This document shows positions 7,598 through 64,000 of a stretch of DNA of 64,000 nt, one piece after another (the stretch's first letter is position 1; the number at the start of each line of letters is the position of its first letter). The stretch comes from Obrimoposthia wandeli (taxonomy: Eukaryota). The DNA lies in assembly GCA_977020255.1 (NCBI GenBank), contig CDROCS010000177.1:62001-126000 (forward strand). Direction: 5' to 3'. The translations under genes and the position numbers were made by a program. Below the pieces are notes generated by a model. It did not search any database, was not told the DNA's origin, and saw only the letters and a list, made by a program, of their open reading frames with translations.

Positions 7598-10208
7598 TGA
7601 AGTCTGTACTGGGCCCGCTAACTCGCGATGTCGAATCTGCGGTGTGTGTGATGCGCCATCTGGTCAACTCTGACGTCATGAGCAACCTGGACCCATCCAT
7701 TCCGCATTTGCGCTTCAACGAGACGGTGAGTGTTCTGTCATTCTATATCGCAGCGCCTGTAGTAAAGAGCGGTCTTGTTGCGGTATTAACATCAGCAACA
7801 TATTCTCAAATTGTCCGGATGTTTAAATGGTTCCTGATAATTAAAAATGTGATCAAATATTTTGTATTAAAAAGTGTACTCACTATCTGCAATAACTCTC
7901 ATACTTTATATTAAAAAATAAGTTGAAAATAACGAAGATGTTTAGCTTTACTGCTAGCATTTCTCCATAAGCTCTTTTCTTGGCATAAGCATATAAGCTT
8001 ATCTACTAAGGGTGACGTAAAACCCCTCGCTAGAAAATATGAGGTTGGTCAAAGTTCCATCTAATGAATTATAATAAATACGATTTTATTAGACGAAGCA
8101 CAATCTAGAAGATTATCTAGATAAGAGCTTACTACAAACATATAAGGAAGATTTTTTGAAAAAAAGGTTAAAAATAGATGTGTTTAGTAACTAGTTAAAT
8201 AAAAACTTACTTTATTACTTTTGGTTTTTGATTTGATTTTTTAAAGATTTCATAAAATTTATCCAAAATGTTTCTAAAAAGCAATTTTGACATAGAAATC
8301 AAATTCATAATTATAAATTTCGTTGTTGGACTTTTTTGTTGTCATTGTTCAAATATATATGCAGTTGTTGAAATTCAGTTTTACAATTGTGGTATTCAAT
8401 TTGAATATAATTTCTTTCTTCACAAACTAATCCAATTAACTGATCATTTAAAACATTCATTGATGTCGAATATGCATTTTATTACTGACAAATACACAGT
8501 TTATCAGGGTCAACCTTTCCAAGATGCCAGAATGAACGGCTGTGTAAAGTCAAAACGTGGTGGGCATGCACAACCATTATCTTGAATTGTTTTGGCAGAT
8601 TGACGAGGAATGCGTGTATGCATGTATTCCATTTGCTTATACATTTTGTCCAGGCCTACAACAAGAAGAGCCTGAAGATAGGCTATTTCTGCTATGACGG
8701 CAGCCACCTCGTCATGCCAGCGATGGAGCGCGCTGTTATGATAACTGTGCAGAAACTCAAAGCACAAGGTCACGAAGTAGGTTCTCTTATGTTTCCCTTA
8801 TGAATGTACTTAATATGCTAGTCTCTTCTAGATACAAAATTAAACTGGCAAAATATTTATCTTAACTGTAAAGACTGATGCGGGAAACTTTCATTAGAAT
8901 TTGCCGTGTTGCAAATGCCAATACATCACTGCACATTTTCTATTAATTTCGTAATTATATAATAATTAAATGACACGGGGAAACTTCATAATTCCTGCAT
9001 CACACCGTGAATGATGCACTATTCGTCACGTAACAGCAAAAAGTGCATACTATATGAAATAGGAATTATTTTCCAATATCGTTAAAGAATCGTCACGTTA
9101 TCAATAGGATGGAATTTTATTTCCTGTGACATAAATTCATTTTCTAAGACAGTTTGATTTAACGACACAGTAAACAATTTGTTTCTGTCAGAAGAATGTG
9201 TGATACGATTTTGTGTGGTTGTGCTCGTGTTGATGTTGTTGCAGGTGGTAGCCTGGAAACCGCCGCTGGTCGGAGAAGAATGGCTGAGTATGTATGTCAG
9301 ATCGGTATCCGTGGATGGGGGTCGGTGTCTTGATCAGCTGCTCCTGCACGACCGTATTGACCCGGCTATAGCCAATGGCATCGTACATCTGGACAGTGGG
9401 TGGACTGAGTGGCTGCTCAACACGATCCGCTACCGATTGCTACCGAGCTGGGTGAGTTTCAGCCCACAGGACCATAACCGTATAGGGTGGAATGTTATGG
9501 GTTCTCACATTGGACTTGATTCTAGAACCTTACATCTGTAATGTGACCACCTCGCCGTGTCAGTTGTGCAGTTCCAAAGAAGACTATGGCCGCTTCTACC
9601 GGGACAGCACAACGAGCCTGAGTGGCCCCGCTTGTGTGGCTCTTCAGGCGGAGGTGGCATCGCTGCGCACCAGTCTGCTGTCGGAGTGGAAACAGGCTGG
9701 CCTGGACTGTGTCCTGTGTCCTGCCGGGGGCTTCACGGCCTTGCCTGGTGGCTTCACTGGGGTCCCGACTCAGGCATCGGCCGCCAGTCAATGGCTCCAC
9801 TACATGCCTCTGATTGCCTCCATCCTACTCTGGAATCTCGTCAACTGCCCCGCCGGCACAGTGCCCGTCACCAAGGTCACTGAGGGTGACCTGGCCCGCA
9901 TGCGCAACGACCCTGTCTACCAAACCCATTCCGTCACGCGCAGTATGGTCAAGGTTCGTGATCTCAGCTGATCATCATTAATCTCTTTACTTGATATCAA
10001 TAATTAATTGTTTTACATTAGTAGCTATAATTACAAATTTGATTATCACTAACCGAGCTCTGTTATCGTCCACCAGGCACAACAAGACACCCTTGGCCTC
10101 TCCGTCAGCGTCCAATGCGTGGGTTTGCCGTGGAACGAAGAGTTGTGTCTGAACCTTATGCAGCAAGTACAACAAGGAGCTTCCGTCAACACTTCCATTA
10201 CCTCCTGA
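7598..10208 (+). CDS. FAAH: Fatty-acid amide hydrolase (amidase-signature family), 3' five exons: 7598-7725, 8654-8776, 9245-9451, 9564-9953, 10077-10208 (TGA). 5' exons lie upstream of the window.
   Basis: GT-AG-bounded, phase-compatible exons translate to segments matching the FAAH C-terminal half: KSVLGPLTRDVES..LDPSIPHLRFNE; LKIGYFCYDG..MPAMERAV..LKAQGHE; SVDGG..DRIDP; EWKQAGLDCVLCP..WNLVNCPAGTVPVTKVTEGD; GLSVSVQCVGLPWNEELCL. The catalytic amidase signature is not in the window. Confidence 0.9.
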
Positions 10209-11539
10209 TCAACATGCATCTACAGTACAATTCCCGATGTTGCAATGCTAATCACATTTATGTTCTGTGTTTATTCGACCAACTGAAACCACAAAACTGA
10301 TAAATCAGGATGTTTGTGTGAATCTCTAAAATCTTCCTGTACACAAATATGAATTTTTGTGGAACCGATTATTTTTACGAAATAGGGAAATTGCACTTTT
10401 CAGTACGAGTAGAAAACCTTCATTTAGTGAAAAATTAACGACATTAAATCTGTATTTTATAATTGTTTGATCTGAGTAGGTTTGTCGTTTAAATAATTAA
10501 AATTTTGTGTAAATCTGAAAAAAGATGTTTTAACACAATTAATTAAACAAACAAAAATGGTATTATTGGAATTTAAATTTTAGAACAAATTAATCTAAAT
10601 AATTTCTAAATAAACGGTTGTAGAACAAAAATACGTCCGTAGAAAAAGTTTTTATTCTCCTATTTGGTTCTTGACATAATGAAATTTACTCGTGACAAGT
10701 GTTTATTTGATCGTAAAAATAGTAATATTGTACACAAAATTGATTACATTTCTATAAAATCCAATATGTGTAGTCAGCTGCTGGCACTCACTACCGATAA
10801 ATATTTTCTCTTGATGCTCGTACTTTTGAGAAAATCCAGGGCGGAGTTGTACTAGGCGCACACCAAGTAATAATAATTGACATACTTCTCTGACGAATTC
10901 AAATTAAGATATTCGAGGATAATATTCTCTAAAATCGGTATTATATTTTGAATTTATGTAATTATATGAATTTCCTTCTTTTCAGATACATTGTGTTATA
11001 GAATTAAATATTTTCATTTCTATTGGGATGGAAATTTCTTTTTGAGAAAATCTGTATGAAATATTTTTCTTTGCATAATTACAATTCGAAGATTTAAACT
11101 AAACGATGCAACTAAACTAAACGTGTTTCTAAATGTATTTCTACCTAATTGAACTACTTAATAATTACTACACAGAACAAAGTGTTTTGTATGTCTATTA
11201 CAACTCTGCTCAAATCCACCCGTTGCTTACTGTTCGTGAGGTTGGGAACTCAGCTGTCTTTTAACCAGTTTTTTATATTTTTTATATTGGACCATATTAG
11301 TTTAACAAAATATATGGATTACATTTTGGGTTAGGTTTTATTTACAGTTTCATTATAAAACTAAAAAAGTGATTTGTTCATTTGCATTTCGTACAGCCAT
11401 CCTTAAAATTATTGTAAAAGGACTAATAAATAATTTATATTACATTTATTCGTTTTTAATGACATTGAAGGTAATTACAAATGTTAATTAAATGAGAAAA
11501 TATCAATAGCTACTAAGAAAATTAAGGTCAATTAATTAT

Positions 11540-13420
11540 CAATTAGTTTTTGTCATGAATCTGATCAGCGTGTCCAACCTACAAATTTCCAGGGCTATGT
11601 AAGCAGTAGAAAAGTTCGCAAACAGCCAATAGTGAGCGGTCATACTTAAGCTAATTACAAAGTATCTGGACAACTGCGATCTCCATACAAATAGTAAAAT
11701 CGGACCCTGGCGCTAACTATTCAAACACAGAATTTTCATAGTAACAGCTCCATCAACTGGTCTAAGCCTATAAGTAGACACCATCATTAAATATACAGTA
11801 GAAGGGTTCATTAAAAATGTATCGATTAGTTGGTGTTCAAATTATTTGATGGCTTTATATGTACCTAGTAGTTCGCGGCCATATGTTGAATACTTAGTTT
11901 CATGAGTTTTAAGTTTTTGGAGAATGATGTTGTAATATTTTTGATGATTTGATTAATACGGCTCCGGTTGCTAAATTGGATACGTCGGTAGTTAAAGATA
12001 TCTCTGCATTATGTGTTGAATTTTTGTAAGTGGTGGCAGTTTTTAGTGCTCTTGCGATTTTGAAATCTTAAAGTTGTTGATCGTTTAGTCTAATTTTCGC
12101 GTTTTTGTTTTTAATTATTTCGTTTAATTGTGCTAATATGTGTGCTGCGTTTTAATGTATTGGTGGTAAAGTTGATCATTCCAAGGAATCCACGTAATTG
12201 TTTGGTGGGTGTAGTTCTGCGATGGTTTTGAGTTTGTTCACATTCGGCTGATGCCATCTACAGACAACGTATAACTTAGGAAGATTATTTTCTTCTTGTT
12301 GTATGCACATTTTTCTGTCTTTAGTGTTAGTTTGTTTTTCACTGTGATTTGTTAACATTTTTTATGTCTATGTTGTGTTGCTCTTGGTTTGGGCTACCTA
12401 TTAGTATGTCGTCGATATATGTTATAACGTTCTTTGCGCTTCTGAAAATGTTGTCCATGGAGTATTGGAAAGTGGATGCTGAATTCTTTAAATCGAAGGG
12501 CATTTTTGAATATTCGTACAATCCGAATGGGATGATGATGGTGGCTTTTTCTATGTCTGATATTTCGACGGGAATTTGGTGGTAAGCGGATGTTAGATAT
12601 AACTTTGAAAATATGTTTGCTTTTCGGCGTGTTATGTCGTGTATGAGTGGTAGTGGGTATGCGTCATGAACTGTTAAGGTTTTCAGTGCTCTGTAGACTC
12701 CGCAACATCTCCATTATTCAGAAGTTTTCCTTTTCATCATCAAAGCAGAAGCCCAAGAGGATTTTGATGGTCTTGTTTTTTTTCTTTAAGGAGGTTGTCA
12801 AATATTGTTTTTGTGGCCGTAAATTTGTCCGGTGGTAGTGGTCTAACTTTTGAGTGACATGGATATCTTGATGTTATTATTTTGTGTGTCGTGTTAGTTT
12901 CAGATTGAGTTGTGGTTGTTGCCGGTATGGATTTGTAAATTGTGTACGAGTATGTCTCAAAACAAATCCCACAATTATTTCAACAAACACTTACAGTGAT
13001 AGCGTGTTCTATTTTGCGTTGACTTGGAACGGTTGTGTAGTGTGTGTCGTGGTATTATTGTTTTGTTGTGACAGTCTATTAATAAGTAAAAGTGTCTTCA
13101 AACATCTTACCCTACTATGGGTTGAATGGTGTCACGAACTATGAAATTCCAGTGATTTGATATGTTGTCTATAATGAGGTTCAACATTTTTTACCCTAAG
13201 TAGTTATTTTTGTATTGTTTGCAGCTATGAGGATAGTATTTTTGTTGTGTATTTGTGTTGAGTGCAGATTGATTTGGGTATTAAGGAAATGGGTGCTCCA
13301 GAATCAATAAGGAAGCTGTATGGTGTGTTTGAAAGGTGCATCTTGAAAATAACGTTTAACCCAGTGTATGGTGGCTCTTAAATACCTGATCTTATGCGTT
13401 TTTTTGATTGTTTTGTTGTG
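11540..13420 (-). mobile_element. Ty3/gypsy retrotransposon pol pseudogene (protease-RT-RNase H)
   Basis: The minus strand gives FLIDSGAPISLIP (aspartic protease); YPLPLIHD..SAYHQIP..FGLYEYSKMPFDLKNSASTFQ..YIDDILI (RT); TTDVS..GAVL and YSTYGRELLG (RNase H). Stops and frameshifts occur throughout. Confidence 0.9.
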
Positions 13421-13564
13421 TTTTTCGATATTATAATTATGTCCATGGTGTATTTTGGTAAATGTTTTAAGAATGTTTCAAATATGATGTTTGTACTCTC
13501 GTAATTTATATGAGGGTCTAATTTTTAAAGGATTTTTGAGTCCTTTTAATATATATGATGGTTT

Positions 13565-15535
13565 TGTTAGATTTAGGAATTGAAAAATTAAAATAATTAG
13601 TTGAATTTATACTAAAATAAAAATCCTTGAAAGCAAGGTTGAAAATTAAATAAAATATTAATTTTAAAATCGAGTTAAATTATTAGGACTAAATTAGGAA
13701 TAAAAATATTAAGAGGACCACGAAGGTCGTGTATGATGTGTTGTGTATATAAGTTAATTGGGAATTAAATAAAAGTGAAAAAAGACAAATAAGCAAATCT
13801 AATTAAGAAAAAGGAAAAGAAGATTGACAGAAGAAGAAATTCGCAACCGTCAGCAAAACGTAGGCATATTTAGTACAGTTGATTAATTGACTTATTTTCA
13901 AGAGCCAGGTGATATCCAGCTGAAGAAAGAAGTAGAATATATAAGCCCGATCCAGAAGAAATCGATTGCCAAAGTGATTGGCAACCAGAAGTAGGATATA
14001 TAAGCCAATTTACTTATTAATTCCCGCACAGAAAATCAGACCGTCTGATCTCGTCTATACAGTCTATTAGTCACAAAAACAAGGTGACGACTAAATCAGC
14101 AGCAGAAGGAAGCCTGAGCCAAACTGCTTCACTCTAAATCGCTCTCCCAGCAACATTAGCTGTCTTCACTCTAAATCGCTCTCCCAACAACAGTAGCTTG
14201 TCTTCCAACACAGAGGTGACTACTCAGCCAAACCGAGCCAACCGATCCCGAGAGACAATAGCGAGAATCAATTCTCTACTCAGTCAAATCAAGCCAGCAA
14301 TATTCGTCAGATTGTCAGCGACTCTCTCCAGCCTAAAGTATCCCCAGCAATATTCGTTTGATTGCCAGCGACTCTCTTCAGCCTAAATTAAAGGTATCAA
14401 AACTTGTGAAATTTTGATTAAGAAAACGTGAAATTTGAATTACTACATTTTAATATATTCTGATTTAAGAGAACGTGAAATTTGAATTACTACATTTTAA
14501 TACATTTTGATTTAAGAGAACGTGAAATTTGAATTACTACATTTTAATACATTTTGATTTAAGAAGAACGTGAAATTTGAATTACTACATTTTAATATAT
14601 TTTGATTTAAGAGAACGTGAAATTTGAATTACTACATTTTACTATATTCTGATTTAAGAGAACGTGAAATTTGAATTACTACATTTTAATACATTTTGAT
14701 TTAAGAGAACGTGAAATTTGAATTACTACATTTTAATACATTTTGATTTAAGAGAACGTGAAATTTGAATTACTACATTTTAATACATTTTGATTTAAGA
14801 GAACGTGAAATTTGAATTACTACATTTTAATACATTTTGATTTAAGAGAACGTGAAATTTGAATTACTACATTTTACTATATTCTGATTTAAGAGAACGT
14901 GAAATTTGAATTGCTACATTTTAATACATTTTGATTTAAGAGAATGTGAAATTTGAATTACTACATTTTAATACATTTTGATTTAAGAGAACGTGAAATT
15001 TGAATTACTACATTTAATACATTTTGATTTAAGAGAACGTGAAATTTGAATTACTACACTTTACTATATTTTGATTTAAGAGAACGTGAAATTCGAATTA
15101 TAAACTCGTGAAATTTAAGGAATTTATGGAAGTTTTGCCCTACAATATTTATCGACACAAGAGTTAGAGGAACAACTCTAAAATCTTGACTAACCTTAAC
15201 ATAAAATCGATACGTGGTTCATCCCCACTTGTAGAGACTTACAGAAGTCTTAGGAGTTTTTACCATACTTTTTAGAAAATACGTACATAAACGTATTGTT
15301 GTGTTTTAGTTTAGTGTGTTACCAATAAACGATTTCCTACATTAGAACACGTTATTTTAAAAACCCTTCAGATTTAGAGACGTCAAACCAAACACCTTCA
15401 GATAAGCAATAGAGATAGGCAACCATAACACTAAGTAGGCCACGACCAACTTTAAGACCTGCTTCTATTCGAACTCACGTTGGGGCCCTCCGCACACAAG
15501 AGGATCTATACAAGTCTCGTATAGAAACCCCAACA
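13565..15535. mobile_element. Solo-LTR-like insertion A (TGTTAG...CCCCAACA), 4-bp TSD GTTT, containing a 47-bp tandem array
   Basis: GTTT at 13561-13564 and 15536-15539. The minus-strand gag-like frame is continuous once the insert is removed. Confidence 0.7.
14415..15100. repeat. Tandem array, 47-bp unit TGATTTAAGAGAACGTGAAATTTGAATTACTACATTTTAATACATTT, about 14-15 copies
   Basis: Near-identical head-to-tail units with no unique spacers. Confidence 0.95.
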
Positions 15536-15583
15536 GTTTTGTTTTATCAGTACTTTTGGGTTGATAATATTTTGTAATAGTTG

Positions 15584-16414
15584 TGTTAGTTTTGTTCCAA
15601 ATAAATAAAATTTCAAATCAAATTGTTGAAGTATTGTATTGTTAAATCAAATGACAGCAAAGTATTTTTGAAATATCAGTAAAATTGTTCACTTGTAAAT
15701 AAATTGTAAAATTCTGGTAAATTGTGTCTTGTGAAGTCGTAGAGAATTATGCTGTTATATACATATATAACGGTAGGTAGCTCGGCAGTAGGGAGATATG
15801 GCCAAAGAGGAACAGATTATCGATTATCGTCCACACACACAACCGCCGCCTTTGTGCAGCAAAAGTACATGTAAATTGGACCGGGAAGAGATATGAGAGA
15901 AGGAGACGATAGCTGACAGCGGAAGACAGGTAGTGACCATGAGGAAGAGAATCGCCGGATGTGTGATTTGGCATTGGGAAGACGCACAGTTGCAGAGAAT
16001 TTCCCGTCTGCTACTGATGATCATGATGATGTTGTTTGTCACTGTTGCGTACACACACATGCACAGGGGAGAGTGCATTCAGACACAGGGAGACTGCTGG
16101 TCGAAGATAGAGATGATGTCGATGATGACGCTAGCTGACTGGGATGATGGAGAAGGATGATGCGAAAGGAAGTGGAGGAGGACCAAATACAATTGGGGGG
16201 TCCGGAGAGCTGGACGGAAAATTCAGTGAGATAAAAACATCTCCGCTCTGCCATTCACTTTTTCTGCCGCCTTCCTGATGAGCATGGCAAGGTGAAACGG
16301 GGTTTTTACCCTGTCGGAAGCTGATAAAAACTTACTCACTGATTGAGGGCATTTTAGTAAAATGTCAATTTAAATTGACATAAATTTATTTTTAATTAAT
16401 TTTAAATCCCAACA
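15584..16414 (+). mobile_element. Solo-LTR-like insertion B (TGTTAG...TCCCAACA), 4-bp TSD GTTG, carrying a degenerate hammerhead
   Basis: GTTG at 15580-15583 and 16415-16418. Removing the insert restores the minus-strand frame ...NTQ|LLQNIINPKVLIKQN. Confidence 0.65.
16271..16320 (+). ncRNA. Degenerate type I hammerhead ribozyme
   Basis: CTTC-CTGATGA-GCAT/GGCA/AGGT-GAA-ACGGGG/TTTTTA/CCCTGT-C-GGAAG. The core is intact, stem II is mismatched and stem I is one C short. Confidence 0.7.
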
Positions 16415-17144
16415 GTTGTGTGTTGTTTGTGTTTGTTTTTTTGTTGTTTATGAGTGTAGTGAGTTCTGCTATGAGTGTGTCTAAAATGATGATGTCGTTT
16501 TTATCTCTACTATTTCTTTTAGGATTTTGAAAGTATTTTTGCAAAATTTATGTTTTGGTAGGTTATAATTTTATTCCACGGTACTGTGTGTGAGGTTTAT
16601 CCATTGATTAGGTGTGTTGTTGTGGTCCGTGAAGTATGTTGGAATTGTGATGTGTTGATTGTTGTATGATTTTGTATTGCAGTTTGTATTTGTCCGTGTG
16701 TTTGAAAAAATGGATTGGTGTGTCGGTGTGTTGTTGTTTGATTTTTTTCTATTTGGCATGTTTGTTGAAGAATTGATATTTATGGATTTATATTTAGCCC
16801 TACGAGGCTTGTACGCAAAATAGAGTTTGCAACAACAAAAAGAGTTCGTAGGGAGATTAGTATATTTAGTATTAAAATTAATGTGTGTATGGTGGTGGTT
16901 TTTACAACTCACAAACGATCAAACTGATCTTGGCTTCTAGTTGTTTTTGATAAACTTCCAGAGAAGGCTTATGTTGGGAAAATATATTAAATAATTGTTT
17001 AAAAAAGAAAAATAAAAATATAAAATTTTTAAAAAATAAAAAGGAAAAAGGAAATTAATTAATTGAAAATTAATTGGGAACTTTCCTTAATTAGGGAAAA
17101 GTTCCGATTTTTAAAATTGTGCACTTTGGCATTTAGTATATTCA

Positions 17145-17196
17145 ATCTCCGACGGGAAAAAAGCCCGTTTCGCCCTGCCGGGCTCATCAGGGAGAT
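17145..17196 (-). ncRNA. Type I hammerhead ribozyme, apparently intact
   Basis: The minus strand reads ATCTCC-CTGATGA-GCCC/GGCA/GGGC-GAA-ACGGG/CTTTTTT/CCCGT-C-GGAGAT. All core nucleotides are present, the three stems pair perfectly, and the cleavage triplet is GUC (cut between 17151 and 17150). Confidence 0.93.
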
Positions 17197-18174
17197 GGTT
17201 TGTTATCTCTGACTTCGCGGTGGGTTCCGCGAAGCCAGAGATAACAATAATAAAGCCAGGGAAAAGATTCCCCCTTTCATGTGCCGACGAATATCGTCGA
17301 CATATGATGTTGTTGTGCACAAATGCACAATTCAACACACACACACTCACACAGCAGACATCACTTACTCACTCAACTTTCTTACTCACGCAATCGCTCA
17401 CACAATCCCTTGCTCACTCACTCTCCCTACTCACCTATTCTTTGTGCACATGTGTGTGTAAGTTTTAACTAAAATTTTTCCGCCTGCCCAGAGTTCGACA
17501 GGCGGTGGATTTTCCCGGCTGCACATGTGAGTGTGTGCAGAGCCGGGAAATATCGATACTTCTCCTCTCTGCCCAGATCAATTTTTCAACCGTTGCCTCT
17601 ATATGGCGCACTCTAACTATCTCCCTGAAATTCCTGAGGCGCTCCCTACATCCACCAAGCCATATCCCTGCCTTCTGATTTTCAAATATATAGGCACCAA
17701 ATACCAAAGTCACCGATCCACTTGGGCCAGTGATACAATTTGATTTTGGCTGCTGCCATCGATCAATGTTAGTCACTACATACCTACACAGTAAAATGCA
17801 GTGGCGTTTTGTGCAGTCGTGCGGACGAAGATTCTATTTAGTCTATGGTGCTGCAATTTGACATTTGGGCAGCAGAATAAATAGTTCTACAAAAATATTC
17901 ACACGACACAATTTTGTTATTAACTTGATTGCTTGAATTGTCAGCTAAAAATAGAAATCCAATACAATTTCTTGTTCAAATTATAGATTGATGTTAATCC
18001 TGAAAACCAATTCATTCTATCATATGGAAGCTTTATCTATTACAATTTTATTCATTTAGTTTATTATCTCTACCAAATAAAAAAGAAAGCGAACAAGTTA
18101 ACACAAAAAACAAAAAGCCAGTCGACAAAAAATTGTTACAAATCTGTCAAAACAAATTTTATTAAACACAAAAG

Positions 18175-18482
18175 ATTGAATCGAATTGGAACGATTATTA
18201 TCATAAAACAATTGAATTAAATTGGAACAATTATTGTTATAGAAATTGAATCGAATTGGAACGATTATTATCATAAAACAATTGAATTGAATTGGAACAA
18301 TTATTGTTACAGAAATTGAATCGAATTGGAACGATTATTATCATAAAACAATTGAATCGAATTGGAACAATTATTGTTACAGAGATTGAATCGAATTGGA
18401 ACAATTATTATCATAAAACAATTGAATTGAATTGGAACAATTATTGTTACAGAGATTGAATTGAATTGGAACAATTGTTATT
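18175..18482. repeat. Tandem array, 70-bp unit made of 36+34-bp related halves, about 4.4 copies
   Basis: Unit starts at 18175, 18245, 18315, 18385 and 18455. Confidence 0.92.
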
Positions 18483-18958
18483 TCTTACTAATTTATTGAA
18501 ATCTAAAATAAATATTATTCGTTTGCTCCGGTTTTATTAACACTTACATCTTGAATCCTGCCTGTGGCACTGTTCCTTCAGAAATGGAAGAAACTAGGAT
18601 TCAACTAAACATTACTTAGGTGTGTTCACGCTACAGTCTCAGACTAAGCTCGAGACAAAGTCGTATATTCACTTTTTAAATGCTCTGAAGAGAGAGATTT
18701 AGAGATCTTAAGGCAAAGAAGAACCCCGAAAAGCATTAATGGTGCAGCAGTTTTTATCACTCATTTACTGTGATATTTCATTTTTCAAGAATGTGTTTAT
18801 TTTTGTTGAAGTAATTTTTAAAATAAAACATAGTGTTCAGTTTTTTACTTTCCACCTGTTATAATTATTAATGTTTATGTACAATAAAGCGTATCAACAT
18901 TTTTTAATGCTTAAATTTTTTTTTATTGATTATCTTTTTTATCAAATTTAAATCTGAA

Positions 18959-19978
18959 ATGGGCTGCAAGGGTAGTCGATTTAAATGCAATTATAATAAT
19001 CATAATCTTTTTCCCAAAGATTTTAACGTAAATAGTAAGACGTCTACGTTGAATGGTTCGCTGGAATATTTTAGAATCTATCTGGATGAAATGAAATTTA
19101 ATCTAAATGACTGGAATATGATTCAGTACAAATTTGACAGTGTCAGTCGAAAATCTTCGATAATGAAATTTGTCAATGATGATGATAATAATAATTGTCA
19201 GAGCAATTTGAATAATGAAGGTGAATATGGAATACTAGACGAAAACCCGTATCAAGAAGGAAATGAAGTCGGAGATAACTATGAAGAGGAAGCAGAAGAA
19301 AAGGAGTTTTACTACGACGGTTTTGATCAAATTGATAATGGTCTCAATGAGAAAATTGCCTCTGAATTCCCACTTGGAATGCACATACTAAATGATTTTT
19401 TCAACTATCATTTCTGGGTTCCTGACTGCTTCCAATCACGAGTTGACTTCATCGAAGTCAATCATATTCCGGTGGCCGACATGAATACATTGGCGGAACT
19501 AAAAGAGTATCTGGTGGATCACGGATGGACTAATTCGTCTAAGGATTCTGATCTGGTGAAGGTAGCGGCCAAAGACACAAATAGGATGCGGAAAATAATC
19601 AGTCTGAAATGTAAGTTTGACATTGAACTCAAAGTTTCAGACTGGTTTTGGTCTAACAAAGGAATGAAAGTACGCGGCTATGGAATTATTGGACCCACTT
19701 GGACATCTGTGTTCAGTGCATTTTGTTATTTTCAACAGTCTTCAGGATTCACCAAGTCAATGATCTCGACTGACTTAACCACAGATCAGTTTATAGATAA
19801 AGTTATCGCTTCTAATCGATATTATTGCCCGGAATTTTACAGTATAGACGAATACTGCTTCGGCGAAGAAGAACAGGAGGTCGACTCTGTAAATGCTGAA
19901 CAAGCTAATGATGATGTTGAAGATGAATATCAAGAAAATGAATTCGAAGAAGAAACAGATAATGAAAATGTGTATTGA
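18959..19978 (+). CDS. Intronless ~339-aa acidic protein of unknown family with N-terminal MGCKGS (predicted myristoylation/palmitoylation)
   Basis: A 1020-bp uninterrupted ORF in AT-rich DNA otherwise dense with stops. ATG is at 18959, TGA at 19976-19978, and AATAAA lies about 185 nt downstream. I recognise no domain. Confidence 0.7.
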   Translation: MGCKGSRFKCNYNNHNLFPKDFNVNSKTSTLNGSLEYFRIYLDEMKFNLNDWNMIQYKFDSVSRKSSIMKFVNDDDNNNCQSNLNNEGEYGILDENPYQEGNEVGDNYEEEAEEKEFYYDGFDQIDNGLNEKIASEFPLGMHILNDFFNYHFWVPDCFQSRVDFIEVNHIPVADMNTLAELKEYLVDHGWTNSSKDSDLVKVAAKDTNRMRKIISLKCKFDIELKVSDWFWSNKGMKVRGYGIIGPTWTSVFSAFCYFQQSSGFTKSMISTDLTTDQFIDKVIASNRYYCPEFYSIDEYCFGEEEQEVDSVNAEQANDDVEDEYQENEFEEETDNENVY

Positions 19979-20208
19979 TAAATTTCTATTAATTATTTCT
20001 GATCCATTTACTTATTTTGATTTTTGCTGACAAAAATCATATGAAGTTCATTATTTTTTAGTTGCTCATTTTTATTTATTATACTTTTTGAAGTTGGATT
20101 GAAGTTTTGTTGAATTATTTGGTGCAAAATGAAAGCCTCTATTTATTGATAATATTCAAAAAATAAATAAAGTCCTAATATATAAAAATGGTTTTTATTT
20201 TATATCAC

Positions 20209-23200
20209 TGTTGGGACTAGAGTTGTTTCACTTCTAAAGGAAGCCTCTAGTTAGTGAATTCTTAAAGGTATAGGATATGTATTGGAGGCATATCCTATGT
20301 AATCTCAAAATCTGAAGGTTAGATATGTAGGTTGTGCAGGTATCAGTATGATTAAACAGAAAATATGAAACGGTTAAATGAATTCTGGATATATCAATTT
20401 TTACTTTGTTACGAGTGTCTTAAAAAATACAAAACTAACAATAGTAAAATGTATTTCACAATTCAAGTAAAAGTGTGTCATTTTAAATAATACAAAAATT
20501 CAACATAAAAGTACGTCAATCCAAATAAAAATATAACACTTAAAAAATAATAAATTCTATTTATGTAGACTTTTACAACTGTTACATGTCTAAGTACTTT
20601 TAGGGTACTTATCCAAAAGAGAACTTTTACAGTTCGACTCTAAATTTAAGTTATACAATTAAACTTTAATATTAAAATTTACCTTAAACCTGAGTTTCGG
20701 CTTTTGCTCACCTGTTCCGGAGTTGTTCTCGTGTAAGATTTATATTTCTCGACGACTGCTTCTCTTTGCATTGACAACTGGGCTATTTCTATTACGCTCA
20801 TTTTTATCTCCTTGCTATAGACCATTCCACTATCGTTGTTGCTCTCTTTTTTGGCAATTTTTTCTGTAAATTTTCTTCTCTCGATGACTGGAAAATATCA
20901 TGTTCTGCCTCAGGTGCCTTTAACACAATGTCTCGCTACCCTTCTTCTACAGATATCGGTATGTCTGCAGACTGATAATTACACTGCTTACATCGGGGTT
21001 CCTCAGGTGACTATATTATTTTTGACTTAGAGGTCAATTGCTATTCAGAGCTAATTAAGTATTTTTGACTGGTTTCCTTTTTGTTTTTAAATCATTTCAT
21101 TAATGTAGTTTACCTTAATTTGACCCTAACATGTTCGTGGTCAGAACTATAAATATAGCCAATCTATTTAATTATTTTTAATTAATTGTTCACATTCCGT
21201 ACCTTAACATTACGATCGATTATTATTAAATCATTCTGTGTTAAAATTCAATACAATAGTCTGAAAACTGATTTTTCATATAAATGTAATTTATTTAATT
21301 TAACCTCCCTAAATTTGGTAATATTTAAAATTAATTTTTCTAATAAATTTATTAAATTTAATTAATATTAAATTTAGTAAAATTACGTTACAATAAAAAT
21401 CCTTTTTAATTCTCAAATTAAAAAAAAGATAAGAAAATTAATTTAATAAATTTTAATGTAAAAAATATATACATAATTATGAATTCTAAATAATTCTGAA
21501 AGTTAAATTTCCTTGTATTACATGTACTCGTCTTGTCACCCCGAATATAGGAAGGTATTGGAACTAATTCTATCAAAGGTTTTGATTCAGTTGAAAATAA
21601 TAATCATGTAAATTTTGGTCTGCTATTTTATTGTAATAAAAATATAATAACATAACTTAACAAAATTTATATTTCTTGTTGCTCTTCGTAAATATATTTA
21701 TTTCCATATTTCTATATCGTTAATAAATAAACAAATAGGTACAATGTAAATAACAAGTGGTTGTTATGATAAACTATCAAGTCCCAATTTACCACTTTTT
21801 CCATCTGTTAAGATTAGGAAATTAAAATAAGTTAAAATAATAATTATTTGTGCTAGAATGTTGAAACATAAATTAAAGGTCGAAATAAATTTAAATAATT
21901 TAGGACCTTGAAGAGGTCTTGTGTATTGCGATGTATGTAGGGTGATTTTAATGAGCGGGTCCAATGAAATAAATTACTAGGAAGATCATTAAAAAAAACA
22001 AGAAAGAAAAATCTAATTAAATTGGAGAGATTGCGAGGGGCGCGGAGGTGGCATGGTGAGTTACGAATTAGCAACGACTGAACTTCTGAGAAACAATCTA
22101 GCCGCCACCATTAGCTGAGATCGAGAGCAGAGCAACAAATCTATTAGGGCCTAAAAAGGAATCGAATTCAGCGGCAGATAACTTGACGGAAGAAAAGTAC
22201 CTGCTGAGAAAAGAACCAGCCGGCATCGTTGAGAGGAGTATTCTCGATTCAGCGACGGAGGTGAGTTTGGTTACTAGAATCGTTACTCTAATTTTATAGG
22301 TAATTTAGGGTTATAGATTTTAGTGAGCTGGTTGCTCTAAAAATATGGGCTGATTTTAGAGAGCTGGTGCTCTAAAAACAAGGATTGAGTTTAGAGAGCT
22401 GGTGCTCTAAAAATGTGGGCAAAATATGGGACGTTTTATTTTTATTTGAATCAATAGGTTTTTAAATTCGCTTTTACTTTAAATTCAAAATTCACTTTTT
22501 ACATTGGATTCAAAATTTCGCTTTCAATTTAACCCTATTTTAGAATAAAATCAATTCGCACTTCTTCGTTCAAAATTCACTTTAATACAACAATATTTTA
22601 GAATAAAATCAATTCGCACTTCTTCGTTTAAATTCACTTCAATAAAACACTATTTTAGAATAAATCACCTCACACTTCTTACCTTCCTCCGAATAGGCCT
22701 GCACGTCCGGTATCGATAAGTTTCCTCAACGTCGGCAGACTTCTTCTAATGTCGGCTGATTCCGGCTGCTTTTCCTTCAGTCGGCTACTTAGTCCTTGGT
22801 TCAGGTGCTGTAGTTGCACTGCTCCGAGGTCCTCGAGTCCGTTCGCTGATTAAGAGCAACTCTTTTGGTGCGATTGTTTTATGTGTCCGTTTAATTTCTT
22901 TTGGCAATTCGTAAGTTACAATTTCTTAAATAGTAATCTTACTTCTCCACTGGATACACTCAGGCTTCTCGTCGGATTCTCCTGTTGTCGTTAAGTGCTT
23001 TCTGCACTATATATACTCTTAAGTGCTTCGTTTTCTCTCGATTGAGACAGCAGATGGCCAGTTCTCAGTTGCTGTTTCTGTTATTCAGGCACTTAGAGAT
23101 TTTAATAGCTTCTTCTTTTCACTCAATCTTCTTTTCACTATTTTTATGGGGCATTTTTGTAACATATAAACTTCTTTATATACTTACGCATTGAACATGA

Positions 23201-23356
23201 CCTTCATGGTCCTAATATTTTACCGGTAAATTTTTTTTTAATTTTAATGTCAATTTTATAATTAATTTTATTTCATATTTAACCTTGCTTTCAAGGATTT
23301 TATTTTGATATAAAACAATTAATTATTTAAAAATTATGCAAAACCTAATCCCAACA
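20209..23356. mobile_element. Cluster of further LTR-like repeats of the TGTTRG/CYAACA family (termini at 20209, 21131, 21806, 23356)
   Basis: These share terminal sequences and internal blocks with insert A; for example ATCCTTGAAAGCAAGGTT appears at ~13622 and in reverse complement at ~23280-23300. I could not pair ends by TSD. Confidence 0.5.
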
Positions 23357-23989
23357 AAGCATAGTTTTGGGTATGAAGCCGCATACATAGGAAAGACAAA
23401 ACTACAGTTAAAGAACATGGTCAAGTTTGTAAGAAGTCTTACATATTGATCACTTGATTTTCGTTGAAAATAGTATTAAACCTTTTGCTATTGATAGGTT
23501 TTTAGTAAGTCATAAAACATTTAGGAAGTATTTTGAAAGAACAGCGTAGGATGCTTTGTGCATAAAAGAAAATCCTTCATTAAACATGCAAAATTATTGC
23601 CTAAAACTGCTGAAAATATTTTAAAATGATTGCTAATCTTGACTTTTTTATATAGCATATTTACTGTGACAATGAGAAACGTGTTTTCCATAGATTATTT
23701 ATTTTTAAATTGCGTATTTTTATATTTTTTCTATTTGGCTTAATTTTTAATTTAAAACATTAATATGTTCAGTGCCATTGCAATCACTCCTGATAATTTA
23801 ATTTCAAAACATTAGTTAATTATTTGTTTTTGTGACATTGTGTGCATCTTTGCCAGTGATTGTTTGACTAGCTAATATGAGAATCTGTTGAAATACAATT
23901 TCCCTTTTAGTGTCAAATTGACTGAATCCAAAAACGAGATTTATCCTGTACTTTCTATTGGCTATGGGGTTTAACAATATTTGTACTTT

Positions 23990-24770
23990 TGTTGGGGGTT
24001 AGATTCATTTAATGAAATTAATTTATATCAAAAAAAATGTAGTTGGTTACGTTTATCATTAGCATTCTCTTTTACACTTTAAAAAATATTATATAAGAAA
24101 CATATTTTAAAAACAAAATGGTTAGAAATCTAAAAAATGCCCTATTAATTGAAAAATTAATTCGTGAATCTTCACTAATTAATTGTTTAGAAATTAATTG
24201 CACTTATGCATTTTAGTTTGTCAATCCCCGACGCTCTTCAGGGCGATGGCTAGTGTTTATCTCTAACTTCGCTGTTGACGAACACCTGTGAAGCCAGAGA
24301 TAAAAAATTAGGTTCTAATGTGCAAAAAACATACAGCCATGCACACACATACACATTTTCCAACCCTAATTCACTCACTTACTCACTACTAACTACTCAC
24401 TAATCATTCACACAACTGCTTACACACTAACTCATTGTATGTGTATGTGAAAACGCAAGACATATTTCAATGCCAAGTTTCCTTCTGTTCTCTTCCCAGT
24501 CCATCTCATACACTCTCCTCTCTATATCTCCCCGTATCCCGTGATTTTCCGACCGTCCCTTATAAATATCTTCCTTCTGTTGTGGAATCTGGGAATCGCA
24601 AGCTCGAGCTGGACAGAGGCGAATTGTCGGAAGAATCGAGCAGTAGTAGAAGCGAAGGCCGGACCATCATTTTATGTGTTTGTGTGTGGATGTACCTCTG
24701 TGCAATCTGTACCTCTATATTGAATCTATCAAATATAAAAAACGCAACATAGTGTCTACAACAAGCACAA
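23990..24770 (-). mobile_element. Third copy of the hammerhead-bearing LTR-like family; ribozyme internally deleted (24224-24247)
   Basis: Starts TGTTGGGG at 23990. The minus strand reads ATCGCC-CTGAAGA-GC-GTC-GGGGAT (stems II and III lost). The flanking TTATCTCT..CTTCGC..GAAGCCAGAGATAA hairpin and CA/ACTC-rich tracts are shared with insert C. The right boundary is approximate. Confidence 0.6.
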
Positions 24771-25059
24771 AAAATCATTATTTTACTTTGACGTCAGAAA
24801 CAATTTATCATCAGTAAACAAAATAATTTTATTTCATTTGCTGAAGCTTGAAAATATTTAGGCTTGTATTTGAACTCAATTATTTATTATTAAATCAATT
24901 TTCCCAATTTGAACTCTTTTTATTCTAATTATAAATTCAATAAAGCTTTTTCACTATTTGAATATCGAATAATAAATTTGTAATTATTTGCATTGTTCAA
25001 ATAATTATGAATACTATTTTTCGTAAGAAAATATAGGAGGTTTTGAAGGTATATATTAA

Positions 25060-26500
25060 AAACTGTGTACAATCTTTTTTTAATTTATTTATTGTGTTTT
25101 AAGAATAAGAATAATTTTCTAATAGCATCTCTCATCATTCTGGTTCGTAGTTTCGAAATGAATTGGATGAATCTGAAAACTGCTTATTTCGTTTTACACA
25201 TTTTGAATTGTGGAGTAAGTTTAAAAGTGAAATTATTGTTTTATCTATTCGGTTGTTTAAACGTTTAAGTAAAATTGCGTAATATTTTACACTAAGTTCA
25301 GAATTCACTTCGGCTATCTTTTTTAACTTAGACGTTAATTTAGTTTCGCAAGGGAAAATAGTGACATATCTTCGGCTTAATGCTTCAACAATAACTTTCT
25401 GTGGAGAAAGAACCACTAAAATATCTTCAAGCATCGTAATATGGTCTATTTATCGTATCCATTTAGTTCAATAAAACTCCTTTTTTGAAACAACTTTAGA
25501 CCATGATGAATCGTTCAATCATATCAACTGGAGAATTACATATTCTTTTCATATCTCTTATTAAATTATTTTTCTGTTAAATTCCTGATTCACATATGTT
25601 TGTAAAAGTGTTTTTTTCTGAATAAATAAACTATATGCTGGAATTCTGTTTTCACTTTCGATATTCAGTTAGAGGAATTTGGTAATTTTATTTATCATTT
25701 TTTAAATAAATCTTTAAAGTCTGATTCATCCGAATCAAAATTATTTTGTATGAATCAGAAGTATATAAATCATGTTGATCATATATTTTGTCAGAAAGGA
25801 ATACATCGTTATGTTGTATAAAATTTCCAGTACTGCTAAATTAATTGCATGGTTCATAAATAGAAGATTGTTAGCTGGATTTTCTTACCCGAATTTAGAC
25901 ACAATACTTGTTCCATCAGTTGACATTGCAACAATATCTTGGTCAAATGTAATTCCATGTTCTTTTAAATTTTGTTCAAATATTGTCTGGGTATCAACGG
26001 CATTGCTAAATATTTGCAAAGGTCCTAGATAGAAAAATACTGATTCGTTGTAATGAATATTTATGTTGAAATATTGCTTGTTTTCCATACCTGCTCACTC
26101 ATCTAAAGTAATATAGATCTTTCATCGCTTTCTCCTTTCTTATTTAATAAGTTAGTTGTTTCCTCTCTCCATTTCTTAAAATAATAAATTCCAAATGTCA
26201 CTAGTCTATTCGTTTTTTGATGGGAATTAAATCGTTTATTAGCAATAAATCCTCTATTGAAAGAGCTTTTAGTTATTGATCGTAAAACAATTTTCAAATA
26301 AAATAATCCTGCAACAATTTCATTCAGCTGCGGTCTTTTACAAAATTTTAAATATTTATGTAAGTATTAGAATTTTTTTGAATTGGCTGTTTGTTTGGCA
26401 TATTTATCATTTGAGCTCTTTCACGAAGAGTAAGCAAATGTTTTACTTTCAAATGGTGTTGTCAATCCCTTAGTCCGATATTATATGTGGGTACCTTTTG
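25060..26500 (-). mobile_element. hAT-superfamily transposase pseudogene
   Basis: IVAMSTDGTSIV..HAINLAV (TDG and CxxH-like motifs), DMIERF and LEDILVVLSP.K.IVEALS segments, with stops and frameshifts. Confidence 0.6.
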
Positions 26501-29500
26501 AATATACCTTCATCTTTATTTTTTTGAAATGATTCCAAAAATTGGCTGTCTTTCGATTAAACATTATTAATAAGGAAAAAAAAGGTATTTGAATGTTGAA
26601 ATAATCTTATTGTTTTCAATAAGAAAAAAACGGATTTTTTGTTGTTGTATTTTCCTGAATATATGGCACGCCTTTATAGCTTCTATAATGCTACTGAAAG
26701 ATGATTTTGCTTATTCCAAAAGCGTTTCTAATATTTTAATCAGATATAGTGATTGTTTTGGTATCTGATTAAAATATGATGTGTACTTTTGTAATACGCA
26801 AACATATGTTTTATTGTCATTTTAAAAGTGAAAAAGACACACTTTATAGTCCATAAAATACGGTACATACTTTTAACACAAGATTTATGTTTTCATGAAT
26901 TTGTAATATCTTATAGCTTACTTAGATAATATCTAATTAACTTTTAATACACACTTTAAAACAGACAATTATAATCAACATATATTTTAGAGCTCTAATT
27001 TAATTGTAAATATTTATAATGTTTTCAGATTTGAAAAAATCCTTTATCTACTGTGTTAAAAATTAAAGAAGTGCTGGTTTTCATGAAATGAAATAAAATC
27101 TAAATTCGTTATATTTAAAATTGTGAATATTCATCTGTTTTTTTGAACGACATTTTGAAATTGAATATAAATTATATTCAGTATTTTTTCGTAGACACCT
27201 TAGGTTGTAAAATTTATCCACGTCATTCGAATAATCAGAAAAATATTCGAGGAACAAATAGTAAATTTTGTTCAATGTTTTCGAATAATATTTGACGAAC
27301 ATATTTGAGTACTAAACGCAAATTAACGATGTTTAATACCGTAATGCGAAGCTACGATTAACTGATGCAATAAACAGAATCCGTCATACTTATTTCAACA
27401 TTATCTTCAGTTTCATTTCCGCACTTATCATAATATCCTTGATATTAATTAATATTTAGACTTTTAGAGAGTTTAATTAAATTTTGTTTTTTCTTTTATT
27501 TTAACGCATTGGAGACAAATCAGTCTGTAAGTCAACTAATCTAGAGTGATCAAAGAAATTTGTTCAAATTGCAGATATGAATTAATTACATAAAAACAAA
27601 GTTAAAACGTTCATAAAAATCTTAAATTGAACAAAAACATTTATTCAAACATCAAAGTTCACTCACATTGCTAATGATGATTTCATGATATCTACATTTG
27701 CCTACTATACTCTTACTCAGAAACATATAAACCATTGTATATTATGATATTTTTGAATTTTTAGGATATTTACATCGTCAAAAGCTACAAAATATTAATT
27801 TATAATAATACATTTAAAACATTTAAAACATTCATGCTATTTGAGAGACGACTAGTTTATTGCTTTTAAATACATGTCAAGAATAAAGCAATACTAAAAA
27901 AAAACATATTAAAACTACAAAATTTATATAATTAAACGTTAAATTTTACTCAACACAATTTAAAAAAAAATTTTTGATTGTAATTTTACTATTTCATTTA
28001 TAAACTTACAGTAAAATATTTTTAATCTTACGACAATTTCTGTATAGTTTTATCAGCTTCTCTGTAAAAAGTTAAAGAAATTTAGTTACAATTTTTAAAA
28101 ACTTTCATAAATTTGTTTGAACATTTTAAAATTACAAATATATGTTAATAAAAATTCAAATAAAAGGAATTATAGTAAATATCATTTTTTAAATTGACTA
28201 TATTTATACATGCACACATGATACATTTTAACTTATATATTTAATATTATTATAAGTATTATACAGAAAATCTTTGAATGATACGTTTTATCCGTTCTAT
28301 CAATTTACAGTATGCAACGCGGTACTTAATTAAACCTATTTTATAAACTAAATCAATGTAAAAACAATTAATTGTTTTTAAAAAACTTTAAAACGGGAAG
28401 TCTATTTTTAAAAAATAATAATTAAAATTAATAAATAGTATATATTTGAGAAATTCCGCCACAAAGTTGTTTGCAATGTTTTCTTCTTATTATCAGCATA
28501 CATATCTTTAAAGAAACAATTGAAATTCTGTAACTTTCATACCTCGTTCAATGTTTGGATTCGCAGTGATTATTAATTCACAAACATCTGTACTTTGTTA
28601 ATTAATATTGATAATTCATCTGAAGTGAACTTTTGATGGAAACAGCATTTTTGTTTTCTTAATTGTTTTCTGAGTTTTTATATATACGTTGCTAATCGAT
28701 CACAGGAAATGTATCATCATCGACGACATCAGAATGCAAAGCTTTGCATTGAAGCACATTCTCACAATAAACAAATATATATATATACAAAATTTCGAAC
28801 TTATAAACTGTTTTATAGCGAAACCGTATTATACAAGAATTACTCTAATTTTATAAAAATATGTATTACCAATTTCATTAAAATTATTCAAAACAATGAC
28901 AAAATTACTAAGCAAAAACTGCATTAATCAAAATCTTACTATTCAAATAAATGCATTATATTTAATTAAAGAATGTTATCAAAATAGTAATTATTATAAA
29001 TATTTTAGTAATTATTTCTATTTATAATGAAAATAATAATAATCTAAATAATTAAATTTCCTACATTTATATTTTTGAACAACCAAAATCATGAAAATTA
29101 TGAAAATTTAAGATTTAATAAATTCATAAAAGTAACTATATGAACAACATAAATTATAACATTAACTAAAAACCAATAGATATATTGTCTTATTCTAAAG
29201 AAACACATCTTTAGGGTTCCTATATTTAATCATTATTTATTTATTGTTCAAAATTAGTCAAAAATAAAATATGCAAAAATTTAATAATTAATAATATTAA
29301 AAATATAATAAGGTGTCTAATATTTTTTTCGTGAAATGTTACTTCATCGGTTTGTATTTATACTAAACCGAAATAGATTGAATGATTCAATTAAAAGTCA
29401 AAATCAAATTAAAATTGATTATTACTTTTAATTCGGATGTGATATTGCAATATAATCTAAATAATGAAGTCGATTATTTCAAAATTAATTGTTAATAAAA

Positions 29501-62600: not shown

Positions 62601-64000
62601 TTCGGTTAACGATAAAGGGACTTTTCCGTATAAATTTGCAAAAAACCTTTGCAGATTTAGAAAATACAACTGAAATCCCACCCATAACTGAATTTGAAAG
62701 TGTAAGTCTTCAAGACTATAATGAGGCCCGTACATTTTGGGTGAATAATTGTCGAAATCTTTTAGAATATATGCTTTATTATATGAAGTTAGACATTTAT
62801 CTTTTAGCTGATATTTTTGAGTCCTTTCGTGTAAAATCCTTAGTAGAAGATGGGCTAGAACCCATGCATTTCTTTAGTTTACCTGGTCTTTCATGGGCAA
62901 CAGCAATAAAAACTCTTAAAATTAATATCGAGTTACTGCAAGATCCCGCGATGTATCAAATGTATGATTATGGTATACGCGGTGGAATGACTTTTGTCAA
63001 CAAACATCATGTTGTCAAAAATCAATCCACGGAGATTCTGTACATCGATATTAATAATTTGTATGGGTGGGCGCTTACTCAACCTCTACCTCATGCCAAC
63101 TTTAAGTGGGTTTATGATGTGGATCAGTTGAATAAGTTGATGACAGATTTGGCTACTGTTGATACAGTTTCATCCGACGTCGGCTATTTGGTTGAGGTGG
63201 ACATAAAAATCCCTCCCAATGTGCATGATAAATTAGATGATCGTCCAGTAGTGCCTGTTCATCAATGCCCACCTAATTCAAAGGTTAAGAAATTATTGTT
63301 AACCCATGAAGACAAGTTGAATTATGTTGTGCATTGGCGGCTTCTTCAATTCTACTTAAAGTTGGGAGCGAAAGTTACTCGAATTCATCGTGCTATAAGC
63401 TTCAGTCAAAACTTTGTGTTTAAAGACTATATTGAGAAGAATTCTAGAAAACGTAATTTGGCCACTAGCAAATTCGATCGAGATTTTTACAAGTTAAAAA
63501 GTAATAGTCTCTTTGGAAAAACTGTAGAGGACTTGCGGAAACGTATTTGTCTACGGTTTTGCAATGATGAGCGTAAACTAATAACATATACTAGCAAGTA
63601 CAACTTCAAGCGTAGTTTTACAATTGCAGATGACTTGGTAGCAGGGTTATTAGGAAAACAGAGTATTTGACTCGATCGACCGAGTTATATAGGTCAAACG
63701 GTTTTAGACATTTCTAAACTCAGAATGTATGAGCTTCAATACATAGAATTGGAGAAATACCGACAAGAATTTAATTGTGAGATTAAAATCGCAGCTGGGG
63801 ACACTGACTCTTTCTTTTTAGAATGTAGGAATGTTAGTTTAAATAATTAATTATTACCAGCAATGTTTAGGGACAACTTACTAGATACCCATAAATATCC
63901 CGCTAACCATCCTCTACACTCTATGAGTTTAAAGGACATTATCGGGAAATTTAAGGATGAAAGCGAGGGACAGGTTTCGTATGATGATTGTATTTTCCTA
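59688..64000 (+). pseudogene. polB: Protein-primed family B DNA polymerase (pPolB), predicted spliced: 59688-59696, 59744-60362, 60426-60512, 60560 to beyond 64000. Inactivated by TAG 61138, TAA 62503, +1 frameshift in the A-run 62640-62645, TGA 63668 and TAA 63848
   Basis: Motifs SSGW..SGSSYIP, NSDNLCFLYS, YADFES (ExoI), CYLC..RDHDHVTGRYLGAACNLCN (endonuclease VII-like), VFHNLKGYDLH (ExoII), RFIDSLQF, YIDINNLYGWAL (motif A), KLKSNSLFGKT (motif B), GDTDS (motif C) and IGKFKDE. Confidence 0.92.

Follow-up and report, generated by a model that had tools for sequence, protein, structure and literature searches.

Three solo-LTR-like units with a hammerhead motif near one end

The 64,000-nt stretch of DNA analyzed here (the window) is from Obrimoposthia wandeli (assembly GCA_977020255.1, contig CDROCS010000177.1, positions 62,001 to 126,000) and is AT-rich (∼30% GC). 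We identified three units in the window, U1, U2 and U3, that resemble solo long terminal repeats (LTRs) of Ty3/gypsy retrotransposons and that each have a hammerhead ribozyme, or what is left of one, upstream of a CCCAACA end (Table 1). The unit names are distinct from the U3, R and U5 regions of an LTR, which are called regions throughout. The predicted cut site lies 99 (U1), 179 (U2) and 240 nt (U3) from the CCCAACA end, and the end of stem I lies ∼93, 173 and 234 nt from it, in agreement with the 95 to 235 nt given in a preliminary description of this DNA. Ribozyme and end are on the same strand and at a similar distance in all three units; with 8 CCCAACA sites on both strands, the chance is ∼0.016 per site.

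Table 1. Units, ribozymes and neighboring features in the window (TSD, target site duplication).
Feature	Position	Strand	Remarks
U1, solo-LTR-like unit, 831 bp, TGTTAG...CCCAACA	15584..16414	+	TSD GTTG/GTTG; nested in older gypsy element
U1 promoter-like region, AT-rich TATA-like segment	15720..15845	+	shares short blocks with U2 (a 17-mer with one mismatch) and with U3
U1 type I hammerhead, decayed	16269..16324	+	cut site after 16315; stem I followed by UGA
U2, solo-LTR-like unit, 1571 bp, TGTTAA...CCCAACA	16972..18542	-	TSD CTTA/CTTA (plus strand)
U2 type I hammerhead, intact, predicted monomer-competent	17142..17196	-	cut site after 17151; UGA after stem I
U2 hairpin 5′ of ribozyme, 21 bp	17200..17247	-	fold z score and U3 homologue
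Further hairpins upstream of U2 ribozyme	17248..17560	-	four G·U / A×C positions
70-bp tandem array, 4.4 copies, at TGTTAA end of U2	18175..18481		repeat detection
U3, degraded relative ending CCCAACA, ∼950 bp	23990..24945	-	5′ boundary uncertain, 24853-25016; U2-U3 nhmmer E 8e-15
U3 hammerhead remnant	24221..24247	-	stem I, CUGAAGA, GUC, UGA; without stems II and III
U3 long hairpin	24256..24304	-	homologous to U2 17200-17247
Decayed host Ty3/gypsy element	11800..16971	-	protease 13228-13377, reverse transcriptase 12342-12713, RNase H 11912-12067
B2, ribozyme-free solo-LTR-like unit, second family, 1971 bp	13565..15535	-	4-bp TSD; 47-bp tandem array 14411-15100
Other B-family ends	1370-1549; 21806-∼21960 (B3); ∼23165-23356 (B4)	+; -; +	ribozyme-free
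Paired-LTR gypsy remnant	42469-43920	-	LTRs 246 and 283 bp
Open reading frame, 339 aa	18959-19975	+	intact, intronless
Fatty-acid amide hydrolase-like gene, last exons	∼8650-10210	+	divergent
Polinton-like pieces	61141-63670; 40506-41263; 33277-33768	+; -; +	
Mariner-like DDE transposase remnant	48516-49483	-	between 43-bp inverted repeats 48465-48507 and 49677-49719
Decayed, by eye hAT-type transposase-like	∼25100-26700	-	no Pfam match
Long near-perfect hairpin	38104-38187		probably MITE-like palindrome

TGTNR...YNACA termini with short inverted repeats (4–5 bp) were found at both ends of U1 and U2 and at one end of U3. This agrees with the TGTNR rule for gypsy termini (PMC2836005). The TGTTR...YAACA ends of the units are in the same style as those of a paired gypsy LTR elsewhere in the window (TGTTAG...CTAACA). 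The two clean 4-bp duplications of the target site (TSDs) reported earlier are present in U1 and U2, that of U3 being tentative. By themselves such matches say little, as 15 of 1299 TGTTR..YAACA pairs in the whole window have one and 11 would be expected. With the 3′ end fixed beforehand, the chance of a TSD is ∼0.038 per unit and ∼0.004 for at least two of three units; the figure for U1 is too low because its flanks are G+T-rich. A TSD at three or more of the seven related ends in the window has a chance of ∼0.001. The boundaries are less sharp at two ends. For U2, position 20538 is another far end with a matching TSD, and none of 5 candidate TGTTR starts of U3 has a TSD. Similarity of U3 to U1 and U2 extends to at least 24810, past the 5′ end at ∼24770 that had been proposed. 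Mapped from U1, this 5′ end was unstable (24853 to 25016 over 128 scoring schemes, 48 of which gave 24939 to 24944). Position 24945 is tentative: it follows an AAAG that matches the 3′ flank, yet the bases there are not TGTTR.

The setting of U1 helps to classify the units. The decayed host gypsy element is interrupted by U1 and by the ribozyme-free unit B2 and is abutted by U2. Its plus strand is 65–75% G+T, a bias that drops to 47% in B2 and 52% in U1 and resumes at 16415, just after U1. Composition change points fall at 13583 and 15536 (the B2 ends), at 15597 (U1 5′ end) and at 16415 (U1 3′ end, range 16385 to 16420). The U2 edge at 16972 has no compositional support, the change point there being 16796. 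Since U1 interrupts an older gypsy element, the units are most likely, as far as sequence can tell, Ty3/gypsy-type solo LTRs. The earlier suggestion of gypsy-type insertion is supported by the solo-LTR-like units, their termini and their TSDs, which point to a gypsy-type integrase. B2 and U1 are only 48 bp apart in one decayed gypsy element that U2 abuts, a nested insertion hot spot.

Self-BLAST and nhmmer revealed no paired LTR copies of U1, U2 or U3 within the window. Descriptor, self-BLAST and nhmmer searches with single units gave no further copies of the ribozyme family there, and no tandem array in the window covers a ribozyme. ARAGORN found 0 tRNA genes, and there was no Rfam match to 5S RNA. 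We rejected U3 and U2 as the LTR pair of one 5.4-kb element: there is no primer-binding site (PBS) after U3 and no polypurine tract (PPT) before U2, a separate TSD flanks U2, and the divergence of the two is far above that of the window's real LTR pair. A reading in which U2 serves the host gypsy element as its 5′ LTR was rejected as well, because U2 is not followed by TGG. Over 10200–28000, none of the 107 frames of at least 48 aa encodes a Penelope reverse transcriptase (RT) or GIY-YIG domain, a search that would miss shorter decayed pieces, and the only RT found was Ty3-like. A link of the ribozyme to nearby Penelope genes, which would have counted against the LTR interpretation, was therefore not seen.

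Ribozyme anatomy and predicted folds

The U2 hammerhead (17196–17145, minus strand) is a complete type I motif with no mismatch. It consists of a 6-bp stem I, CUGAUGA, a 4-bp stem II with a GGCA loop, GAAA, a 5-bp stem III and a GUC cut site, and has the type I core (CUGANGA, GAAA, UH), three stems and an open stem I. A strict type I descriptor run on both strands of the whole window matched U2 only; a relaxed descriptor (one mismatch per stem) added U1 (16269–16321, plus strand) and nothing else. Among locally shuffled windows, 0/300 matched the strict and 1/300 the relaxed descriptor. Rfam scored U2 alone, at 27.5 bits (E 0.12) for Hammerhead_3, well below the gathering score of 48.5, and this type III match spans the shared core only. 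A phage collection gave one 26-nt chance match to the ribozyme block (E 0.6).

The predicted minimum-energy fold of the U2 motif is the hammerhead itself, and the active fold lies within 0–0.6 kcal/mol of the minimum in 5/5 contexts, up to 879 nt. In U1 the core is intact, with a C×A mismatch in stem I and a G·U and an A×G in stem II. The U1 ribozyme is probably dead because its modeled active fold lies 9–16 kcal/mol above the minimum in 4/4 contexts. The U3 remnant (24247–24224, minus strand) keeps 5/6 pairs of stem I, CUGAAGA and GUC, while 28 nt of stems II and III are gone. CpG depletion was considered as the cause of ribozyme decay and set aside, since observed/expected ratios of 0.77–0.96 in the units are uninformative.

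UGA directly follows the 6-bp stem I in all three units, and the GGCA loop II is common to U1 and U2; the first U of UGA and the A of loop II would make the activating tertiary contact. Loops I and II are described as joined by a conserved reverse Hoogsteen pair (PMC6155905). A stem I of 6 bp and a stem II of 4 bp are canonical for metazoan type I hammerheads, in which helix III usually has 1–2 bp with a palindromic loop (PMC4209133). Stem III of U1 and U2, at 5–6 bp with a U-rich loop, is neither minimal nor palindromic. Because it is longer than usual, the ribozyme should work as a monomer according to the predicted structure. Between U1 and U2, three stem pairs have changed on both sides. 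These changes and the UGA in 3/3 units agree with the earlier view of the ribozyme as an ancestral part of the units and suggest structural selection on the ribozyme in their ancestry.

The U2 ribozyme is directly preceded by a 21-bp hairpin that has a homologue in U3, and a 146-nt segment there has a folding z score of −6.1 (0/200 shuffles). In the hairpin run further upstream, four non-Watson-Crick positions are G·U on the ribozyme strand and A×C on the other.

Relatedness of the units

By BLAST, the only part common to U1 and U2 is the 48-nt ribozyme block (83%). With this block removed, the local alignment z scores were 0.8 (U1–U2), 5.3 (U2–U3) and 3.6 (U1–U3) for the upstream parts and 1.8, 3.8 and 0.6 for the downstream parts. 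Outside the ribozyme, similarity is significant on both sides for U2 and U3, upstream only for U1 and U3, and not significant for U1 and U2. The single family first described is therefore a loose one. Short collinear blocks near the TATA-like segment are marginal (3/100 shuffles at best), and 3/130 real window slices equal them. Judged by these comparisons, the units are remote relatives of which the ribozyme is the best-kept part.

Neighboring elements

The second family of LTR-like ends, the B family, is ribozyme-free: Rfam at E up to 1 reported no ribozyme in these ends, which have small hairpins only. Two such hairpins and a CCTAA-containing end are common to the family, of which B2 is complete; B3 and B4 face each other head to head and share no TSD. 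The paired-LTR gypsy remnant has a PBS-like sequence after the 5′ LTR, a PPT before the 3′ LTR, the start of gag and an integrase fragment. It has a large internal deletion and neither a TSD match nor a ribozyme.

Between U2 and U3 is an orphan open reading frame with acidic stretches. It belongs to no Pfam family; 3 relatives were found, the best at E 2.5e-17 (35% over ∼130 aa). If U2 extended to its alternative boundary at 20538, the frame would lie within U2, and no link to the units was found. The decayed hAT-type-like stretch is directly upstream of U3. The spliced fatty-acid amide hydrolase (FAAH)-like gene, with GC-rich exons and AT-rich introns, matches Pfam Amidase and, weakly, the FAAH structure (E 4e-4). 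The Polinton-like pieces match Pfam models of a protein-primed DNA polymerase B and an endonuclease VII-like region, and some fragments resemble by eye a viral-type cysteine protease and a capsid protein. The hairpin at 38104–38187 has a weak match to the mir-1277 model (E 0.17) and is probably a palindrome like those of miniature inverted-repeat transposable elements (MITEs).

A proposed role for the ribozyme

It is a serious possibility, though somewhat short of an even one, that the units are Ty3/gypsy-type solo LTRs with a monomer-competent type I hammerhead on the transcribed strand, from elements whose RNA was cut, circularized and reverse-transcribed. The termini, 4-bp TSDs, nesting and ribozyme fold are observed, and from these we infer all later steps. 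Transcripts from the LTR promoter would include ∼400 nt of structured RNA on the way to the CCCAACA end, and the hammerhead would cut 99–240 nt ahead of the LTR end. Cuts in both LTRs of a two-LTR element would release an RNA of unit length that lacks the cap, the poly(A) and the terminal R repeat. As such RNA would not support normal strand transfer, a circle would be needed. The R-less RNA would be ligated into a circle, gypsy RT would copy around it and gypsy integrase would insert the cDNA, as proposed for plant LTR retrozymes. Solo copies could arise from LTR–LTR recombination or as short cDNAs. The cut RNAs of plant retrozymes lack R, circularize and are reverse-transcribed around the circle (PMC4918200), and in one plant retrozyme the LTR transcript is cut downstream of the start site (PMC12029980). 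RtcB circularizes animal type I products in vitro (PMC7229834).

Several observations weigh against this proposal. No paired element, PBS or PPT was found at any unit in either orientation, as is expected of solo LTRs. The units measure 0.8–1.6 kb versus ∼350 bp for plant retrozyme LTRs, and only one of the three ribozymes (U2) has a predicted active fold. The covariation check recommended in the preliminary description did return the pairs changed on both sides, but 91/500 shuffles do as well; the signal is not significant because there are so few sequences (effectively two, with U3 misaligned). Clues to orientation also point the other way. The TATA-like motifs described upstream of the ribozyme are present but match TATAWAWR better on the opposite strand in 3/3 units (8, 7 and 8 of 8 positions; 7, 6 and 7 for the ribozyme strand). 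Taken inward from the CCCAACA end, the sequences begin with TGTTGGG and an A-rich stretch, as the oriented gypsy LTR of the window, which is paired and located at 43920, does at its 5′ end. AATAAA and ATTAAA are absent from the ribozyme strand of U1 and U2 between the TATA-like region and the end, which is expected if cleavage replaces polyadenylation; the ribozyme-free B family, however, also mostly lacks AATAAA near its ends (B2, B3), and the absence in U1 and U2 is therefore not specific.

Transcription towards CCCAACA is favored by the ribozyme itself and by the ∼400 nt of U2 hairpins with their four G·U positions, and the folding z score is lower on the ribozyme strand in 4/5 of the most structured U2 windows. 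Although the strand evidence points both ways, a position of the ribozyme in the R/U5 region, as first proposed, is moderately likely. The TATA scores and the inward resemblance of the ends would both be explained by a gypsy LTR with an antisense hammerhead in its U3 region, where the ribozyme would cut antisense or bidirectional transcripts, limiting double-stranded RNA or trimming antisense mRNA, and R-dependent reverse transcription would stay intact. An autonomous element could then tolerate a fully active ribozyme. A long U3 region with a short R-U5 region is a common proportion, and the antisense orientation gives it in U1. We nevertheless consider this explanation unlikely: the TATA-like runs are near-palindromic and AT-rich with score gaps of one base, their distance to the shared block is not constant once unit U3 is realigned, the implied R-U5 region of U1 has no AATAAA, and we found no precedent in the articles examined.

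A sense ribozyme could alternatively serve partial processing, in which a share of the transcripts is cut to form 3′ ends in the 3′ LTR or to allow translation without a cap from the 5′ LTR, and the remaining RNA is reverse-transcribed in the ordinary way. With their length and tandem array, the LTRs resemble those of large elements more closely than those of small retrozymes. The pairing probability of stem I, at ∼0.5–0.6 in long contexts, is consistent with incomplete cleavage, and type I hammerheads in the 5′ untranslated regions of fungal viruses drive cap-independent translation (PMC13725137). The stable 5-bp stem III of U2 and its predicted monomer fold suggest efficient cleavage instead, and a cut in the 5′ LTR removes R. 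On balance partial processing seems improbable, though well worth keeping in view.

We doubt that the ribozyme is a passenger, that is, a fragment of a Penelope pseudo-LTR or a non-LTR retrozyme that was inserted once or twice into gypsy LTRs and has no function. The restriction of U1–U2 similarity to the 48-nt block would fit such an origin, as would the canonical metazoan stems I and II (PMC4209133), the two broken copies among three, and a parallel LTR family, B, that manages without a ribozyme. However, the ribozyme is the most conserved part of diverged units and has double-sided stem changes; no insertion TSD, tandem copy or Penelope ORF was found nearby, and metazoan Penelope hammerheads have a short palindromic helix III, unlike the 5–6-bp stem and U-rich loop found here.

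A further variant of the circular-RNA proposal is a long shot: the units could be LTRs of an autonomous gag-pol Ty3/gypsy lineage in which the capped, R-flanked linear genome was replaced by a ribozyme-cut circular RNA that serves as template for reverse transcription and also for cap-free translation. An LTR retrotransposon of this kind would pass through a viroid-like RNA phase, and it is compatible with the data because the long structured LTRs and the deep divergence of the copies do not conflict with it.

It is very improbable that the units are no LTRs at all but Penelope-like fragments or non-autonomous Ginger-type DNA transposons with coincidental TSDs: although TSD matches occur at chance rate window-wide, U3 has no clean 5′ end and no internal domain is linked to any unit, inverted repeats of 4–5 bp against 40–270 bp in Ginger (PMC2836005) exclude the latter, no Penelope RT or GIY-YIG was found in the frames searched, both B2 ends and the U1 3′ end coincide with composition change points, and TSDs at three or more of seven ends are hardly coincidental.

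Comparison with known systems

Retrozymes have been divided into two groups, one of LTR elements in plants, with type III hammerheads, and one of non-LTR tandem repeats in animals, with type I hammerheads and a link to Penelope elements; the animal repeats are said to lack LTR, PBS and PPT (PMC7229834, PMC7761336, 10.64898/2026.07.22.740005). With plant LTR retrozymes (PMC4918200) the units share a hammerhead in a non-coding LTR-like repeat, the 4-bp TSD, gypsy-type termini and the occurrence of solo LTRs. The plant ribozyme is type III in an LTR of ∼350 bp, whereas here it is type I in units of 831 and 1571 bp in an apparently animal host, probably an invertebrate to judge by the amidase gene, its introns and the transposable elements of the window. 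Plant elements have paired LTRs, PBS, PPT and circular RNA, compared with solo units without PBS or PPT in this window. Because the type III topology and the 300–400 bp LTR of the definition are absent, the units do not belong, by sequence, to the LTR retrozymes as defined, and at most a similar way of working may be supposed.

Metazoan non-LTR retrozymes (PMC7229834; 10.64898/2026.07.22.740005) have the same canonical type I layout with a 6-bp stem I and a 4-bp stem II. They are tandem repeats of ∼150–450 bp with larger TSDs and without LTR, PBS or PPT, whereas the units here are single, with TGTTR...YAACA termini, 4-bp TSDs and a 5–6-bp stem III, and no tandem array lies over a ribozyme. Penelope pseudo-LTR hammerheads (PMC4209133, PMC8557442) are likewise type I and near the end of a terminal repeat, but in metazoans they have a minimal or short palindromic helix III and act as dimers. 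Unlike in Penelope elements, no RT/GIY-YIG ORF and no partial copy, whether tandem or inverted, was seen with the units.

Ordinary Ty3/gypsy solo LTRs, and the miniature terminal-repeat retrotransposons (TRIMs) with RNA genes, Helenus and Ajax (PMC10886601), share TGTNR termini, the 4-bp TSD and, in the TRIMs, an RNA module in an animal LTR. The module in Helenus and Ajax is a tRNA- or 5S-derived promoter (PMC10886601); here it is a predicted self-cleaving ribozyme. Full-text literature searches, which covered neither most subscription papers nor supplements, Repbase or Dfam, turned up no gypsy LTR of an animal with a hammerhead, and a prior mention elsewhere is possible. Many ribozyme loci are listed in the supplements of PMC4918200 and PMC4209133, and a comparable case may be among them. 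The pairing of hammerhead and LTR was found described only in plants, and type I hammerheads in gypsy-type LTRs would break the division between plants and animals. Strand transfer depends on the R repeat, which is lost when the LTR is cut efficiently. The parent element would therefore need a circular template, control over cleavage or an antisense ribozyme, each of which would be unusual.

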